A DNA stretch of 64,000 nucleotides, from the NCBI RefSeq assembly GCF_045037415.1, contig NZ_CP173438.1; one strand, written 5' to 3'. Positions 35,697 to 47,903 of this stretch are shown piece by piece. The DNA comes from Escherichia coli (GTDB taxonomy: Bacteria > Pseudomonadota > Gammaproteobacteria > Enterobacterales > Enterobacteriaceae). Below the pieces are notes generated by a model that was not told the origin of the DNA, searched no databases, and was given only the letters and a program-made list of their open reading frames with translations. Positions within the stretch are counted from its first letter, which is position 1. Each line of letters begins with the position of its first letter. The position numbers and the translations under genes were made by a program.

Positions 35697-38600
35697 ATGG
35701 GAAAAGGTGGCGGTAAGGCACACACGCCTCGTGAGGCGAAGGATAATCTCAAATCCACGCAGATGATGAGTGTGATTGATGCGATTGGTGAGGGACCGAT
35801 AGAAGGTCCGGTGAAGGGACTGCAGAGTATTCTGGTGAACAAAACCCCACTGACGGACACGGACGGCAATCCCGTGATACACGGTGTGACGGCGGTCTGG
35901 CGCGCCGGGGAGCAGGAGCAGACACCACCGGAAGGCTTTGAGTCCTCCGGAGCTGAAACCGGACTGGGCGTGGAAGTGACGAAGGCAAAACCGGTGACGC
36001 GCACCATTACGTCCGCGAACATTGACCGCCTGCGGGTTACCTTCGGGGTGCAGTCACTGGTGGAGACCACCTCAAAGGGTGACCGTAACCCGGCATCCGT
36101 CCGCCTGCTGATTCAGTTACAGCGTAACGGTAACTGGGTGACAGAAAAGGACGTCACCATTAACGGCAAGACCACCTCACAGTTCCTGGCCTCGGTGATT
36201 CTGGATAATCTGCCTCCCCGGCCCTTTAACATCCGGATGGTCAGGGAGACGGCGGACAGCACCACGGACCAGCTGCAGAATAAGACGCTGTGGTCGTCAT
36301 ACACCGAAATCATCGATGTGAAACAGTGCTACCCGAACACGGCCATTGTGGGGCTGCAGGTGGATGCGGAGCAGTTCGGCGGCCAGCAGATGACGGTGAA
36401 CTACCATATCCGCGGTCGCATCATCCAGGTGCCGTCAAACTATGACCCGGAAAAACGCACGTACAGTGGTATCTGGGACGGCAGTCTGAAACCGGCATAC
36501 AGCAACAACCCGGCCTGGTGCCTGTGGGACATGCTGACTCACCCGCGCTACGGCATGGGAAAACGTCTGGGGCGGCGGATGTGGACAAGTGGGCGCTGTA
36601 TGCCATCGGGCAGTACTGCGACCAGACGGTCCCGGATGGTTTCGGGGGGACCGAGCCGCGGATGACCTTTAATGCGTACCTGGCACAACAGCGTAAGGCG
36701 TGGGACGTTCTCAGTGATTTCTGCTCTGCGATGCGCTGTATGCCGGTATGGAACGGTCAGACGCTGACGTTCGTTCAGGACCGCCCGTCGGATGTGGTGT
36801 GGCCGTACACCAACAGCGATGTGGTGGTGGATGATAACGGCGTGGGATTCCGCTACAGCTTCAGTGCCCTGAAGGACCGGCACACGGCGGTGGAGGTGAA
36901 TTACACCGACCCGCAGAACGGCTGGCAGACCTCCACGGAACTGGTGGAAGACCCGGAAGCCATACTGCGCTACGGACGCAACCTGCTGAAGATGGACGCG
37001 TTCGGCTGTACCAGCCGCGGTCAGGCCCACCGTGCCGGACTGTGGGTGATAAAGACCGAACTGCTGGAAACGCAGACGGTGGATTTCACGCTCGGGTTCT
37101 CAGGGGCTGCGGCACACACCCGGTGACATTATTGAAATCTGTGATAATGACTATGCCGGGACCCTGACCGGCGGACGTGTCCTGTCCATTGATGCTGCCA
37201 CCCGCACCCTGACGCTGGACCGTGAGGTTACCCTGCCGGAGACAGGTACATCGGCGGTGAACCTGATTAACGGCAGCGGTAAGCCGGTGAGTGTGGACAT
37301 CACCGCACACCCCGCGCCGGACCGGATACAGGTCAGTACCCTGCCTGATGGTGTGGAGACATACGGGGTGTGGGGACTCTCCCTGCCGTCACTGCGCCGT
37401 CGCCTGTTCCGCTGTGTCTCCATCCGGGAAAACACGGACGGCACCTTTGCCATCACGGCGGTGCAGCACGTACCGGAAAAAGAAGCCATCGTGGATAACG
37501 GTGCCCGCTTTGAGCCGCAGTCAGGTTCCCTGAACAGCGTCATCCCACCGGCAGTGCAGCACCTGACGGTGGAGGTGAGCGCAGCTGACGGCCAGTATCT
37601 GGCGCAGGCGAAATGGGACACGCCGCGGGTGGTGAAGGGTGTGTGCTTCAGTCTGCGCCTGACCAGTGGTAAGGGAACGGATGCCAGACTGGTGACCACC
37701 GCCATCACCGCAGACACGGAGCACCGTTTCAGCGGCCTGCCGCTCGGGGAATACACCCTGACGGTGCGGGCGATAAACAGCTATGGCCAGCAGGGTGAAC
37801 CTGCCACCACCACCTTCCGGATTACCGCACCGGCAGCACCGTCGCGGATTGAGCTGACGCCGGGCTATTTTCAGATAACCGCAACGCCACATCTTGCCGT
37901 TTATGACCCGACGGTACAGTTTGAGTTCTGGTTCTCGGAAAAGCGGATTGCGGATATCAGGCAGGTTGAAACCGCAGCCCGCTATCTTGGCTCGGCGCTG
38001 TACTGGATAGCTGCCAGTATCAATATCAAACCGGGCCATGATTATTATTTTTATATCCGCAGTGTGAATACTGTTGGCAAATCGGCATTCGTGGAGGCTG
38101 TCGGTCGGGCGAGCGATGATGCGGAAGGTTACCTGGATTTTTTCAAAGGAGAAATCGGGAAAACACATCTGGCCCAGGAGCTGTGGACGCAGATTGATAA
38201 CGGTCAGCTTGCGCCGGACCTGGCTGAAATCAGGACGTCCATTACGAATGTCAGCAATGAAATCACGCAGACCGTCAATAAAAAACTGGAAAATCAGAGT
38301 GCGGCAATCCAGCAGATACAGAAAGTTCAGGTTGATACAAATAATAACCTGAACAGCATGTGGGCCGTGAAACTGCAGCAGATGCAGGACGGACGCCTTT
38401 ATATTGCGGGTATCGGTGCCGGTATTGAGAATACGCCAGCAGGAATGCAGAGTCAGGTGCTGCTGGCGGCAGACAGGATTGCGATGATTAATCCTGCGAA
38501 TGGCAACACAAAGCCGATGTTTGTTGGTCAGGGCGATCAGATATTTATGAATGAAGTGTTCCTGAAATATCTGACGGCTCCCACCATTACCAGCGGCGGT

Positions 38601-39170
38601 AATCCTCCGGCATTTTCCCTGACACCGGACGGGCGGCTGACGGCGAAAAATGCCGATATCAGCGGTAACGTGAATGCGAACTCCGGGACGCTCAACAACG
38701 TCACGATTAACGAGAACTGTCGGGTTCTGGGAAAATTGTCCGCGAACCAGATTGAAGGCGATCTCGTTAAAACAGTGGGCAAAGCTTTCCCCCGGGACTC
38801 CCGTGCACCGGAGCGGTGGCCATCAGGAACCATTACCGTCAGGGTTTATGACGATCAGCCGTTTGACCGGCAGATTGTTATTCCGGCGGTGGCATTCAGC
38901 GGCGCTAAACATGAGAAAGAGCATACTGATATTTACTCCTCATGCCGTCTGATAGTGCGGAAAAACGGTGCTGAAATTTATAACCGTACCGCGCTGGATA
39001 ATACGCTGATTTACAGTGGTGTTATTGATATGCCTGCCGGTCACGGTCACATGACACTGGAGTTTTCGGTGTCAGCATGGCTGGTAAATAACTGGTATCC
39101 CACAGCAAGTATCAGCGATTTGCTGGTTGTGGTGATGAAGAAAGCCACTGCAGGCATCACGATTAGCTGA
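35697..39170 (+). pseudogene. J: tail tip fibre / host specificity protein J, interrupted by two frameshifts
   Basis: Three ORFs (35697..36665, 36518..37126, 37257..39170) together collinear with lambda J; first and third share a frame, middle segment is shifted; 1-nt loss in G-run 36569-36572, 1-nt gain at ~37097-37103. Confidence 0.8.
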
Positions 39171-39237
39171 ATTTTATAACCCAGATACGGGCGCCAGAAA
39201 TGGCGCCTTTTTTATTGCAGAAAAGCGAGAGGTAATT

Positions 39238-42900: not shown

Positions 42901-43014
42901 ACGCACTCGGTTGCGATTGGCTCACATGGACACACCATCACCGTTAACGCTGCTGGTAACGCGGAAAACACCGTCAAAAACATCGCATTTAACTATATTG
43001 TGAGGCTTGCATGA
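39988..43014 (+). CDS. stf: side tail fibre protein Stf (Ala/Ser-rich repeat shaft, His-box C-terminus)
   Basis: 1008 aa; N-terminus like lambda Stf; long low-complexity A/S/T-rich shaft; C-terminus with HTHS/HAHT repeats ending [18 protein letters not shown] as in lambda Stf. Confidence 0.85.
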
Positions 43015-43913
43015 TTACGCTCATTCTTTCTGCACCAGTAACCGAAATGGCTGAAGCATTTAAGCGGGTATTTGCAAATGCAGATAATGTGAATATTGTC
43101 GGAAAGCCATTTGAAACAATCAGAGAATTTGACTGCATGGTAAGTGCGGCAAATAGTTTCGGCCTGATGGATGGCGGTGTTGATGCCGCCATTACCACAT
43201 TCTTCGGTTCTCAGCTACAGGCCCGCGTTCAGAATCATATTCTTCGTGAATATCTCGGCGAGCAGCCTGTAGGTTCTGCATTTGTTATTGAAACGGGGCA
43301 TAATTATCACCCCTGGCTGGTACATGCGCCAACAATGCGTGTTCCGTTGACAATTGACGGAACAGACGCTGTATATAACGCAACTTGGGCAGCTCTACTT
43401 GCTATCTTTCAGCACAATAAAAACGCAACGACAGACAGGAAAATAAAGACGGTGGTATTCCCTGCAATGGGAGCCGGATGTGGTCAGGTGCCGTTTGAAA
43501 GCGTTGCCCGGCAGATGAAGCAGGCATGGGATAACTTTAATAAAAAAACAGAATCAATTAACTGGGAATACGCACAATCCCGCCAGTCGGCAGTATTTGG
43601 CACATATGCATACTGTCCGGGTAATTCTGTTTGCCGTTATGCGGATACTAAATATATTGGATGCGGCGATTATCGGACGTATTGCTCACGCTCCGGGCAG
43701 GTCTGTATTAACCCTGAACATCAGGCTGATGATGTACTGATACAACATCAGGCTAATAACCGGTTTCGCCCTGGTTCGCATATACACCGGATTAATCCAG
43801 AAAATCCTGTAGGTAATGTCATCTCTGGCGCACATAGCCACGGAAGTAGCATCGTTATTGGTGCTCACACCCATACGCTCAATAAACAATATTCTGTCTC
43901 TGATATTAAGTAG
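43011..43913 (+). CDS. macro-domain protein with tail-fibre-like His-box C-terminus
   Basis: ATGA overlap with stf; residues ~40-190 carry macro-domain blocks ([51 protein letters not shown]) by comparison with recalled E. coli YmdB; last ~45 aa ([18 protein letters not shown]) resemble fibre tips. Confidence 0.55.
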
Positions 43914-44618: not shown

Positions 44619-45995
44619 CTATGATATCCCTGAAATGTCCTCTTCAAGCTCTTTTACTGATTTCGCAATTTTAAATTTAAATTTTCTCTCTATTTCACTA
44701 TTGCTAAGTTTTTTTTCATTCTCTTTCCCTATCCACATAGAAACAATTTCTCGTTTCTGAGATATATGTAGATTGTCAAAGTTAGGTATGTATTTAAAAG
44801 TCTCCGCTCTACCCCTGCGGAGTTCATAGAAAGTTTTAATCAAAGACTTTGGTTTTATTTCTGATGAAAGGCCGAATCGGCGGATAAGATTATTGATCGT
44901 ATGATTAACAGCTCGAAGTTGAGCTGTTGACGTTATTTGTGAGAAGTACGATACCCATCCCAATCGTTTACCTTCAAACACACATCCCGTAATTCTAAGA
45001 TTTAGTTTCCACTGACAATATGCAACAGCTCGTTCTTTATCGTGCTTATTTTTAGCTTGTAGTAGAGCGTGTCTATATGCAGTAAAAATTTTTGCTAAGG
45101 ATGACTCAAATCTAAGAATGCTCTCATGTTTTATCAATAATTCTCGATTTTTTATGTGGTAGCCCAAAAAGTTGAAACTTTCATCCAAGCTGCCTACTTT
45201 GGATTTTGAGTTCTCTTCATTTAATGGATGTGGGTTTAAATTTAATGATTGAAGCTTATCAATGATATGAGATGCAATTTTTGTTGCTTGATCTTTTTGC
45301 GTTAAAATAAGAATGTCATCAACGTATCGCATGTACCATATGTCATGCATTTTATTGATTTCATTGTCGAAATCAGATAGTGATATTTCAGCTAAAATGT
45401 TTGATATTGCTAACCCCTGAGGTACTCCTCTGGTATTATTAGGGACACCTTTGCTTCCTGTACTTCCACTTACAGTAGGCACGATTAATGATGATGTTAT
45501 TAACTGCCTAATTTCTTTTTTTCTAATCTTATTTTTTATTGCATTAAATATCAATTTATGTTCAATTGAAGGATAGAAACTTTTGAGATCTATTTTTGCA
45601 TATTCAGCATATAGATCGCTGTTTAATGCATTTTTCAATAAGTCAATTACTGTATGTGGTAGTTTTAATCTGGAGTTAGGATATATTTCTGTAAGGCATT
45701 CACAGAGAGCCCTAAGGGTAATTCTGTCCCTGGCAGTTGGTATGGAAATCTGTCTGGGGATAGAGTTAGCCCCTTTAGATATTAATTTTTCTTTATATGC
45801 TGTAAATTTATAATTTCCACAATTAACCTTTTCAAAAATAAAAGTGATCTCATTCTTTATTGTTAAATCAAGTTTTGATGGACGAATCCGATCTATGCCA
45901 ATCGCTCCTGATTCTTTGATTTTTTCATTGTATACTTTTAGAAGGTTTTTTTTCGAGAATGACTTTTTAAAAACTCTGCTTGCATTCATAGTCAA
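44619..45995 (-). CDS. reverse transcriptase (defence-associated / retron-like type), with C-terminal extension
   Basis: 458 aa; RT blocks RQISIPTARDRITLRAL, YAKIDLKSFYPSIEH, GVPQGLAISNILAEISL, catalytic YVDD (YMRYVDDILILT); AT-rich codon usage. Confidence 0.8.
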   Translation of the reverse strand: MTMNASRVFKKSFSKKNLLKVYNEKIKESGAIGIDRIRPSKLDLTIKNEITFIFEKVNCGNYKFTAYKEKLISKGANSIPRQISIPTARDRITLRALCECLTEIYPNSRLKLPHTVIDLLKNALNSDLYAEYAKIDLKSFYPSIEHKLIFNAIKNKIRKKEIRQLITSSLIVPTVSGSTGSKGVPNNTRGVPQGLAISNILAEISLSDFDNEINKMHDIWYMRYVDDILILTQKDQATKIASHIIDKLQSLNLNPHPLNEENSKSKVGSLDESFNFLGYHIKNRELLIKHESILRFESSLAKIFTAYRHALLQAKNKHDKERAVAYCQWKLNLRITGCVFEGKRLGWVSYFSQITSTAQLRAVNHTINNLIRRFGLSSEIKPKSLIKTFYELRRGRAETFKYIPNFDNLHISQKREIVSMWIGKENEKKLSNSEIERKFKFKIAKSVKELEEDISGIS

Positions 45996-46518
45996 TCCAA
46001 AGACATATTAATGGGAGGATATAAAGGCCGACAGTAATAAACATTCGACGTAATATCCATAATTTAACAATTATTTTTTCTTTTTGTGTGGGGAGTCTAG
46101 TCGTAAGTCCAACTTGAGTTACCCTTGAAACTTTATCATCTATGTCACGATGATTCTCAACCTCATTGAGCAAATTAAAATATTTTTCTTTCTGTTCAAG
46201 AGTTAACTGTTGGCCGTTATTAATATCAAAATAGAGTCTCTGTAGTGCAATATAATTCCTTCTCATGGCTATTGCTCGACCACGATAATCTAGGTTAGAT
46301 ACGATCAGAGAAATACCCAGTAGAGCCACTGAAAGTATTGCCGCAACGATATCTGTATTATCTCCTAGAAATTTTGGAAATCGTAACGTTATAATTGAAA
46401 GTACCGCACTCAATATAGCATACCAAACGAGGATAAATTGAGAGTGTTTTTCAAGCCATTCTAGTCTATGGTGCGCTTGAATACGGGCTTTATATGTAAA
46501 CCAAATATTTTCATGCAT
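45967..46518 (-). CDS. small membrane protein (two adjacent TM helices, SLATT-like), putative effector
   Basis: 183 aa from MHENIW (AAGGA RBS 6 nt upstream); helices FILVWYAILSAVLSIITLRF and IVAAILSVALLGISLIVSNL; overlaps RT start by 29 nt. Confidence 0.55.
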   Translation of the reverse strand: MHENIWFTYKARIQAHHRLEWLEKHSQFILVWYAILSAVLSIITLRFPKFLGDNTDIVAAILSVALLGISLIVSNLDYRGRAIAMRRNYIALQRLYFDINNGQQLTLEQKEKYFNLLNEVENHRDIDDKVSRVTQVGLTTRLPTQKEKIIVKLWILRRMFITVGLYILPLICLWIDYECKQSF

Positions 46519-46538
46519 AAAATATCCTTTTAAAAAGC

Positions 46539-46673
46539 GGAAGGGGCAGGATATATTGGAACCGTTGAACATCCTGCTCGGCAGGATCAGTGAGCATAAG
46601 CTCAACAGTAAAATATTACTGTTCATTATCAGAGCCGCCCTTGCATACGCAAGAGGAAAAAACTGCCCCATCC
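46539..46673 (-). ncRNA. candidate structured non-coding RNA upstream of the membrane-protein/RT operon
   Basis: Imperfect 12-nt inverted repeat GGAAGGGGCAGG (46539-46550) / ACTGCCCCATCC (46662-46673) enclosing four perfect hairpins (46571-46587, 46592-46603, 46606-46621, 46640-46653); strand assigned by operon context only. Confidence 0.35.
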
Positions 46674-46762
46674 TTTTGAATTATTACAATTTAATGATCT
46701 TAAAGTCAATACAAGTGAATTGTGTCCAGAGATGATGAACTAAATCACTCGTCAGCAAATTC

Positions 46763-46982
46763 CTAGGTATCTTTCAGAGTGTCCTGAACAAAAATTTTAA
46801 CTGAATCTTTATCGGCGGTGCGTGTAACAGAAAGGTCATCATTGCTGGTGGCTTTTACGATCACCTCTACATCTTCATAACGCTTACCGGTGCGTCGGGT
46901 TAATTCTTCCTTCTAACGCATCCACAGCGCTGTTTGGCAGTTTAGTCATTTTCTCTTTGGCTATGCAGATCTCAATACGCAT
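46763..46982 (-). pseudogene. dinI-like (DinI/MsgA family) gene with +1 frameshift
   Basis: [25 protein letters not shown] then frame change to [27 protein letters not shown]; extra A in GGAAGAATT relative to an in-frame reading. Confidence 0.65.
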
Positions 46983-46996
46983 AAAAGTCCCTCTAC

Positions 46997-47041
46997 ACTG
47001 TGTTTGTATACAGTATCATTTTTAACTGTATGGATAAACAG
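46997..47041. promoter_or_regulatory. two LexA (SOS) boxes upstream of dinI-like gene
   Basis: CTGTGTTTGTATACAG (46997-47012) and CTGTATGGATAAACAG (47026-47041), both CTGT-N8-ACAG. Confidence 0.6.
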
Positions 47042-47236
47042 TGTCAAGGGTGAAGGAAAGTGATTTTTTGGGGCATGCATGGGGCAAAAATATTTGTTGT
47101 GGGGCATTTTGGGGCATGATTGGAACACTTTGTTACATATGAACTTTGCCGATTTTTATATGACATGGAAATACAACGCTTTGATTCTTCTAAATAAAAA
47201 ACATGCTCTTGGGCGTTCTTTAGTGATTTTTAAAAA

Positions 47237-47340
47237 TTCCGTATCACGCAGTTAAAGTGGCGGGCATACTCTTCAAGGCTGGTGATCCCCAACCGCACCC
47301 ATTTAGGATGCGACCATTGTGGCAAACCGATGTAAATCAT
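47237..47340 (-). pseudogene. yecE: yecE 5' fragment truncated by prophage insertion (att junction ~47240)
   Basis: Minus-strand translation [32 protein letters not shown] matches E. coli YecE N-terminus, then diverges to an immediate stop. Confidence 0.75.
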
Positions 47341-47903
47341 AACGCGTGGAGGATCTCTTCAACGCTACGCACACGGGCGATGCGCGGGTAGATATGATTA
47401 ATGCTGTTATTGTGCTGCTCGGCGCTAGCGGCGCTACAGGCATCTTCGGCAATCACCAGATTAAAACCGAGTTCCCAGGCATTGCGGGCGGTGGATTCAA
47501 CACCGATATTGGTCGAGATCCCACATAACACTATTGTATCGATACCCCGGCGGCGCAACTGCAATTCCAGATCCGTACCGTAAAACGCACCCCATTGACG
47601 TTTGATGATTTCGATATCGCTGTCGGTTGCACCTAATGCTACAGGATGTTGCCACCAATTTTCGGGCAACACTTTAGCGGGGGAAGGGGCATCAACCGGC
47701 TGTTTTAATGCTTCAGCATAATCGGCAGACCAGCCAACACGCACCAGAAACACGGGCTGACCGCTCGCGCGAAATTTCGCCGCCAGCTTCCCGGCGCGAT
47801 TAACCACCTCATCGGCAGTATGTGGACCACCGGCAAAAGGCAAGATGCCTTCTTGTAAATCAATCACCACCAGCGCGGTGGTTTTAGCATTAAGTTCAAG
47901 CAT
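47337..47903 (-). CDS. yecD: isochorismatase-family hydrolase YecD
   Basis: 188-aa ORF recognised as E. coli YecD; stop overlaps yecE start (ATGA). Confidence 0.9.

Follow-up and report, generated by a model that had tools for sequence, protein, structure and literature searches.

LexA-controlled dinI operons have been described for the prophages Gifsy-1, -2 and -3 (Lemire et al. 2011, PMC3121763), a dinI homologue with an annotated SOS box is recorded in the phage VT1-Sakai (Sp15, AP000400), and a 21-bp attachment (att) sequence within yecE has been published for lambdoid phages, Stx phages among them (Nakamura et al. 2021, PMC8112680). The locus presented here lies at positions 46763 to 47340 of a 64,000-nucleotide stretch of Escherichia coli DNA, below called the window, and holds a dinI-like pseudogene, a promoter with two LexA boxes and a prophage junction in the host gene yecE. 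The interval is very probably the integrase-distal (attR) end of a defective lambda-like prophage in yecE, with a dead dinI standing behind an SOS promoter and inherited as one block with a DRT10 defence cassette. Every component is of a known kind, as documented by the calls of the Prokaryotic Genome Annotation Pipeline (PGAP), the SOS-boxed dinI annotations of VT1-Sakai and mEp460, the yecE att site (2021), the LexA-controlled dinI operons (2011) and the descriptions of DRT10 (2025-26). Taken alone, the locus is of little weight: one more prophage junction, if a cleanly resolved one. All four elements that an earlier note on this DNA had placed here are present at or within ~10 bp of the positions it gave. 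Absent from that note was the DRT10 cassette, which the pseudogene adjoins on the same strand and with which it is inherited as a block.

In VT1-Sakai, the gene H0001 encodes an 82-residue DinI homologue and has the same promoter layout with both LexA boxes. This dinI is likewise the last phage gene before the att site (attR), with ~84% DNA identity to the window and a homologous P arm carrying TGGGRCA repeats. The VT1-Sakai record marks a ‘putative SOS box’ at the equivalent of the proximal box, together with a ‘promoter of H0001 and H0002’, and annotates only one of the two boxes. VT1-Sakai differs from the window in that its dinI is intact, in that it integrates in yehV, and in that a YkgJ-like gene follows dinI where the window has DRT10. 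The Gifsy operons share LexA control and the position of dinI as first gene ahead of downstream cargo, whereas they lie after the replication genes, have one LexA box and carry as cargo an antirepressor needed for induction (PMC3121763). An antirepressor is absent downstream of dinI in the window prophage, which encodes a CI-like repressor of the LexA/S24 family according to the RefSeq annotation of an identical genome. Chromosomal E. coli DinI (1GHH) belongs to the same fold family and aligns with the intact phage alleles over residues 1-81, but the phage alleles fall below the equivalog cut-off, and truncation has left the window copy without the C-terminal helix.

The dinI-like pseudogene and its promoter

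The dinI-like gene begins with an ATG at 46982, preceded by the Shine-Dalgarno sequence GAGGGA at 46993-46988. Its translation, repaired by the removal of one base, matches Pfam PF06183 (E=2.1e-10). An intact relative matches NCBIfam PRK10597 with E=2e-20, although at 73 bits this is below the 111-bit equivalog cut-off. The intact relatives encode an 82-residue protein that aligns end to end with E. coli DinI (PDB 1GHH, E=4e-13) and has in common with it the C-terminal motif TWESAD(D/E)WFV. The C-terminal helix of DinI is reported as the RecA contact (Voloshin et al. 2001, as cited in PMC3121763). By homology with E. coli DinI, an intact 82-residue phage DinI would bind RecA filaments through this acidic C-terminal helix (TWESADEWFV).

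Four lesions were defined in the window copy by alignment to the intact 82-residue alleles. A G inserted at 46913 (coding strand) converts TTA-AAG-GAA to TTAGAAGGAA and leads to a TAA at 46886-46884 after 32 residues. Two tryptophan codons have become stop codons, TGG>TAG at 46765-46763 and TGG>TGA at 46747-46745, and an 8-bp deletion between 46742 and 46741 has taken away the last codons together with the stop. No uninterrupted open reading frame (ORF) of ~80 residues ending in the acidic helix (TWESADxWFV) is present in the window copy. Because of the +1 insertion, the two nonsense codons and the 3' deletion, it is a pseudogene of the DinI family. The earlier note had described a DinI-family gene with a +1 frameshift and had taken it to be inactive; the family and the frameshift were confirmed, the single lesion was replaced by four, and inactivity agrees with these disabling lesions and with the excess of nonsynonymous changes described below.

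Substitution patterns separate the window copy from its intact relatives. Compared pairwise, the intact alleles differ by 4-13 synonymous and 0-8 nonsynonymous codons, the latter mostly 0-3, as in MZ1211 and mEp460 (8 synonymous, 0 nonsynonymous). The repaired window dinI differs from MZ1211, IHE3034, O177, VT1 and mEp460 by 5-9 synonymous and 11-12 nonsynonymous codons as well as 2 stop codons, and from UTAK-4 by 15 nonsynonymous codons. These patterns imply that the intact family is under purifying selection and that the window lineage has been free of such selection for some time. Judged from its substitutions, the window dinI is an old pseudogene that has undergone long decay.

Single-base indels are the commonest assembly error, and the frameshift might on that ground be attributed to sequencing or assembly, or else to a slippage-prone, phase-variable site in a gene that is really intact. 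This explanation is vanishingly improbable. The exact 80-nt stretch around the insertion is found in 74 of 5,426 complete genomes, which are independent of one another, at several chromosomal positions, and the Sanger-era genome of IAI39 with its prophage at prfC is among them. The inserted G lies outside any homopolymer run (TTA-G-AAGG), and the gene shows three further lesions and the nonsynonymous excess. Since the exact allele occurs in 74 complete genomes, it is no sequencing error and the resequencing proposed earlier is unnecessary.

The decayed gene could also keep a DinI-like or new function through its 32-residue N-terminal peptide or through a product restarted at the GTG at 46864. 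The Shine-Dalgarno sequence and the ATG are intact, and the peptide would be produced upon SOS induction. The C-terminal TWESADEWFV helix, which E. coli DinI has in conserved form, is missing from both fragments, however, and the substitution pattern is that of relaxed constraint, so that a functional fragment is considered very unlikely. DinI function is lost from the window copy, because its 32-residue fragment lacks the RecA-contacting helix.

The two SOS boxes named in the earlier note, of the form CTGT-N8-ACAG, are both exact. This pattern occurs 3 times in the 64-kb window against 0.73 expected, and two of these sites, spaced by 28 bp, immediately precede the dinI ATG. Read along the coding strand, the order is TTGACA, the distal box within the spacer, TAAAAAT, the proximal box, GAGGGA, 5 nt and the ATG; the predicted promoter has 10/12 consensus matches in a consensus scan. 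Sites were scored with a LexA weight matrix built from 22 E. coli operators, with the ruvAB operator as an internal positive control. That operator (CGCTGGATATCTATCCAGCA, 52565-52584, upstream of ruvA) scored 19.3 bits and matches the expected ruvAB sequence exactly. Both dinI boxes outscore it and rank second and third in the window. The best score, 24.6 bits, belongs to the candidate site TACTGTAAAAATATCCAGTT at 14688-14707, where a truncated phage DNA methyltransferase ORF (14680..) has its first codons.

Promoter conservation was compared in nine phages, namely the window, IAI39, IHE3034, O177:H21, MZ1211, UTAK-4, P-EibC, VT1-Sakai and mEp460. In all nine, the -35 is TTGACA, the two boxes are present (16-25 bits), and their distance from the ATG is unchanged. 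When the five most diverged promoters were aligned, the positions of the CTGT and CAG half-sites were invariant and the internal spacer was variable, a pattern that an operator would be expected to leave, as its footprint, at the level of sequence. The records of mEp460 and VT1-Sakai annotate a promoter at the equivalent position. Given this conservation, the double operator is genuine, and it characterizes the phage module as a family rather than the window copy in particular.

The positions of the operators, the first within the -35/-10 spacer and the second over the expected transcription start, imply that LexA should keep the promoter shut. In the intact phages, LexA bound to the two operators would hold the promoter closed until RecA-stimulated LexA cleavage, and DNA damage would then release a burst of DinI and downstream cargo, a scheme in agreement with the dinI-antirepressor operons of the Gifsy phages (PMC3121763) and with VT1-Sakai. 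In the window copy, the promoter and ribosome-binding site appear intact, but only the 32-residue fragment could be translated.

The yecE junction and attachment site

A 1-kb query spanning the interval was 100% identical to 51 complete genomes, several of them labelled O25b:H4-ST131. RefSeq annotation of identical DNA gives, from right to left, yecD, the yecE fragment, the dinI-like gene, a SLATT-domain protein, a reverse transcriptase and then tail-fibre genes. The earlier note had read yecE correctly for 32 codons from a start overlapping the yecD stop, and this was borne out. The yecE ATG at 47340-47338 overlaps the yecD stop (ATGA), the same as in K-12, and the yecE ORF (47340..47230, minus strand) encodes residues 1-32 of K-12 YecE followed by phage-encoded IRNF and a stop at 47230. 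PGAP names the product of this fragment a partial ‘hypothetical protein’ overlapping the yecD stop. The note's prophage-host junction is present as well, although not at its position of ~47240: exchange is placed at 47249-47255 by the alignments and the rebuilt attB described below.

Alignment of K-12 attB with both junctions revealed a short similar region, which reads CCTCCAC(G/A)CAGTTAAAGTGGCGGGCAT in the host attB, CCGTATCACGCAGTTAAAGTGGCGGGCAT at the window junction and CCTCCACACAGTTAACATGACGGGTAT at the integrase-side junction. G47248 is phage-specific, whereas A47256-G47257 and everything to their right are host sequence. Strand exchange is confined to the 7 bp CAGTTAA, since these are the sole bases common to both junctions between phage-specific and host-specific bases. 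An attB of 409 nt was rebuilt by joining the host flank of the left junction to that of the window junction, with A at the variable base, and was identical over 409/409 nt (100%) to the uninterrupted yecE of many genomes. The comparison with uninterrupted yecE proposed in the earlier note thereby gave CAGTTAA as the att core. Because the rebuilt attB exactly matches empty sites, integration was conservative.

In attB, the 7-bp overlap is flanked by the dyad CCAC-N9-GTGG, and from this sequence layout a lambda-type tyrosine integrase can be inferred. Such an integrase would have inserted the prophage conservatively into yecE codon 31, with strand exchange within CAGTTAA. Genes for a tyrosine recombinase and an excisionase lie at the opposite prophage end, outside the window, in the RefSeq annotation of an identical genome. 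The site is uninterrupted in 4,903 of 5,425 complete genomes and consequently interrupted or missing in ~1/10 of them. A crossover at ‘CAC’ was also considered, on account of the G/A difference beside CAGTTAA, and was rejected, because, with A at this base, the rebuilt attB has exactly the sequence of empty sites in related strains. The variable base is A in the host lineage and G in K-12, and the difference is synonymous.

The window shows just one junction, and taken by itself the yecE fragment might be a local duplication or rearrangement instead of a phage integration junction, a duplication being the case that the earlier note had named as refuting its reading. In NZ_AP022525.1, an identical genome with RefSeq annotation, the prophage is lambdoid and ~51 kb long, and the integrase, the excisionase and the 3' part of yecE lie ~3.7 kb left of window position 1. 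The matching junction that the note had suggested looking for therefore exists. The missing 3' part of yecE adjoins int and xis at the far prophage end, and the two host flanks joined give intact yecE exactly, which rules out a duplication; a rearrangement of another kind is next to inconceivable.

At the left junction (L002 4959-5002, outside the window), the phage half of attP encodes a yecE-like stretch, NTRHVNCV, where the host has ARHFNCV. Through this diverged stretch the yecE frame runs on, unbroken, into the 3' end of int, and PGAP calls at this place a 256-residue DUF72 protein that begins at a non-canonical ATT. Some 18 bp separate the crossover from the stop codon of int, a gene that also contains arm-type motifs. 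It is unlikely that the prophage supplies a replacement yecE 5' end at this junction, as the frame does not have a canonical start ahead of the Val32 GTG and lacks host codons 1-30.

The yecE att published in 2021 occupies the same position in yecE; CAGTTAA at 47249-47255 falls inside its 21 bp, and the window attR core CACGCAGTTAAAGTGGCGG matches the published region. The window phage differs in that the half of its attP to the right of CAGTTAA is diverged (CATGACGGGTAT), and for this reason the identity between attL and attR amounts to merely 7 bp in this lysogen.

The stretch that separates the core from the dinI promoter contains, at a distance of 130-185 bp from the core, a cluster of direct TGGGRCA repeats. 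Exact TGGGGCA copies (n=4) begin at 47069, 47080, 47100 and 47110, and a degenerate fifth copy is found at ~47120. The repeat motif is not enriched in the whole window (8 found against 11 expected), yet 4 copies within 48 bp form a clear cluster. The repeats are kept in yecE phages (90-95% identity), in P-EibC (79%) and, as a homologous arm, in the yehV-integrating VT1-Sakai. Similar motifs, TGGGGCAT and TGGGACAT, occur at the int-proximal junction inside the 3' end of int. By analogy with lambda, the TGGGRCA repeats may be inferred to be arm-type integrase binding sites. The 7-bp exchange segment together with the arm repeats defines the att of this yecE-integrating phage type.

The attP arm and even the core of VT1-Sakai (L005 2741-3040, yehV) are homologous to window positions 47050-47260, as seen in TCACGCGCGTAACGTGACAGG versus TCACGCAGTTAAAGTGGCGGG. 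This sequence homology suggests that VT1-Sakai and the yecE-type phages have related integrases with a shifted target.

Several points weigh against the overall interpretation of the interval. Of the operators in the LexA matrix, only the ruvAB site can be verified in the window, and LexA binding and expression at this locus are predictions from sequence. The arm repeats are assigned to Int, and not to Xis or another factor, by analogy with lambda. The modulation of induction by a phage DinI that the earlier note had put forward is hypothetical; in the Gifsy prophages, non-polar dinI deletions had no significant effect on induction (PMC3121763). Phage dinI can evidently be lost while the surrounding module stays, which fits the reports that dinI is dispensable for induction.

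Mosaic structure and the DRT10 cassette

The window locus is a mosaic. Between 47060 and 46972 it does not differ from yecE phages carrying an intact dinI (MZ1211 type). Between 46986 and 46490, where the alignment ends, it agrees at every base with the prophage at prfC in IAI39, a carrier of this same pseudogene and of the DRT10 cassette. The switch of identity indicates that a yecE-type arm and promoter were joined to the pseudogene block by recombination within ~15 bp at the start of dinI. From the aligned sequences, the dead allele arose outside this lysogen and arrived with DRT10 as one block by homologous recombination. The dinI-DRT10 block is present at the yecE, prfC and dusA att sites. 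Cargo such as DRT10 is evidently moved from one lambdoid phage to another through the conserved dinI/promoter segment, in the manner of a recombination linker.

The cassette itself is complete and was identified by its two protein genes and by a structured RNA element; its UG17 enzyme is of a telomerase-like kind, and SLATT is a pore protein. The reverse transcriptase (RT) matches PADLOC RT_UG17 (E=8e-159) and has a YVDD motif in its ORF translation, and the SLATT protein matches PADLOC RTasSLATT (E=2e-57) and NCBIfam SLATT_5. A 140-nt element in the 244-bp gap upstream of SLATT folds as a basal stem enclosing four stem-loops (z=-4.2). The published DRT10 non-coding RNA (ncRNA) lies upstream of SLATT (PMC12632851), and the 140-nt fold agrees with its description (PMC12632851; bioRxiv 10.64898/2026.04.29.721553). 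An Rfam scan of 46300-47400 gave no match at E<=1; no curated RNA family explains this region, and Rfam is without a DRT10 ncRNA family. The ORF finder lists a 234-residue ORF for SLATT (start 46671), but since this ORF runs into the ncRNA, the real start is probably at 46518. The DRT10 homologue table of PMC12632851 contains the exact SLATT sequence as well as the C-terminus of the RT.

The window cassette resembles the described DRT10/UG17 systems (PMC12632851; bioRxiv 10.64898/2026.04.29.721553) in having a UG17 RT, a SLATT_5 protein and a structured upstream ncRNA. It differs in being placed directly behind a LexA-boxed dinI, a placement undiscussed in those two papers. At >=94% identity, the cassette is found in ~187 complete E. 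coli genomes, in prophages, and it has 0 matches in 50,697 phage records; its contexts were accordingly taken from bacterial genomes only. Carriers of DRT10 may be mostly defective prophages, or may simply never have been isolated as phage. A DinI-like gene lies beside the cassette in every inspected locus and in every listed match reaching the dinI end. In alleles with intact dinI (IHE3034, O177:H21), the cassette starts directly after the dinI stop codon.

This arrangement raises the possibility that the orphaned SOS promoter acts as a LexA-gated upstream promoter, reading through the pseudogene into the ncRNA-SLATT-RT cassette. Promoter, pseudogene, ncRNA, SLATT gene and RT gene share the minus strand. 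On this strand no intrinsic terminator is predicted from 47047 to 44400, a span that takes in the promoter and the whole RT gene, which leaves room for SOS-induced read-through into DRT10. The cassette follows immediately behind the dinI stop in the intact alleles, the arrangement is kept at all three att sites (yecE, prfC and dusA), and even IAI39, the older pseudogene lineage, still has high scores for both operators. A dinI that leads an SOS operon with downstream cargo is also found in the Gifsy phages and VT1-Sakai.

On the other hand, the cassette has a promoter-like site of its own, and the published ncRNA is independently transcribed. All ~187 cassette copies are at least 94% identical, and the conserved adjacency may therefore represent a single insertion event that provides no independent evidence. 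The integrity of the window promoter needs no selective explanation, because this promoter came by recombination from a phage with intact dinI. Moreover, ~200 nt of untranslated pseudogene RNA could trigger Rho-dependent polarity. Read-through regulation of DRT10 from the SOS promoter is on balance doubtful, though it is the strongest of the alternatives weighed here. SOS, LexA and dinI are unmentioned in the DRT10 papers PMC12632851 and bioRxiv 10.64898/2026.04.29.721553 and in a supplement. If read-through did occur, the expression of DRT10 would rise or change upon DNA damage or prophage induction, a kind of regulation undescribed for this system. Studies of DRT10 in its native context would have a predicted LexA-controlled promoter ~270 bp upstream of the ncRNA to consider.

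Feature coordinates and prophage context

Table 1 Features at the right prophage end and in the adjoining host DNA (window coordinates).
Feature	Position	Strand	Basis or details
yecD (isochorismatase-family hydrolase), host, intact	47337..47903	-	ORF list; RefSeq annotation of identical DNA; K-12 arrangement
yecE 5' fragment, host	47245..47340	-	32 codons identical to K-12 YecE; PGAP, partial pseudogene
att overlap/crossover CAGTTAA	47249..47255		Three-way alignment of attB/attL/attR and rebuilt attB
Five direct TGGGRCA(T) repeats, predicted arm-type integrase sites of the attP P arm	47069..47126	+	Motif scan, conservation
Sigma-70-like dinI promoter (predicted)	47018..47047	-	-35 TTGACA 47047-47042; -10 TAAAAA/AAAAAT 47024-47018
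Distal LexA box CACTGTTTATCCATACAGTT	47024..47043	-	Fills -35/-10 spacer; 21.1 bits
Proximal LexA box TACTGTATACAAACACAGTG	46996..47015	-	Covers expected transcription start; 21.7 bits
dinI-like pseudogene	46741..46982	-	Alignments; Pfam DinI; PGAP ‘DinI-like family protein, frameshifted’
Mosaic (recombination) breakpoint	46972..46986		Difference lists from alignment
Predicted DRT10 ncRNA and promoter-like site	46532..46709	-	ncRNA ~46673-46532; TTGACT-18-AATAAT 46709-46680
DRT10 protein genes	44619..46518	-	SLATT 46518-45967; UG17 RT 45995/45989-44619

Apart from dinI, the tail tip gene J (~35699-39171, plus strand) is split into several ORFs and is called frameshifted by PGAP in identical DNA. 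The prophage is probably unable to form infectious particles unaided, and with gpJ frameshifted in addition to the loss of dinI, the prophage as a whole looks defective.

Two further regions of the prophage were noted. Between the side tail fibre and tail fibre assembly genes, a 300-residue macro-domain ORF (43011-43913, plus strand; ADP-ribose-binding or hydrolase-like) had zero PADLOC matches and could be an anti-defence or moron gene. In the nin/Q region, positions 11220-14078 form a second defence-like island, in which a C5 cytosine methyltransferase (11220-12260, plus strand) faces a DUF262 protein and a HEPN-like nuclease (12229-14078, minus strand). The DUF262 protein of this island is NsnA / PD-T4-2_A-like (E=6e-46).

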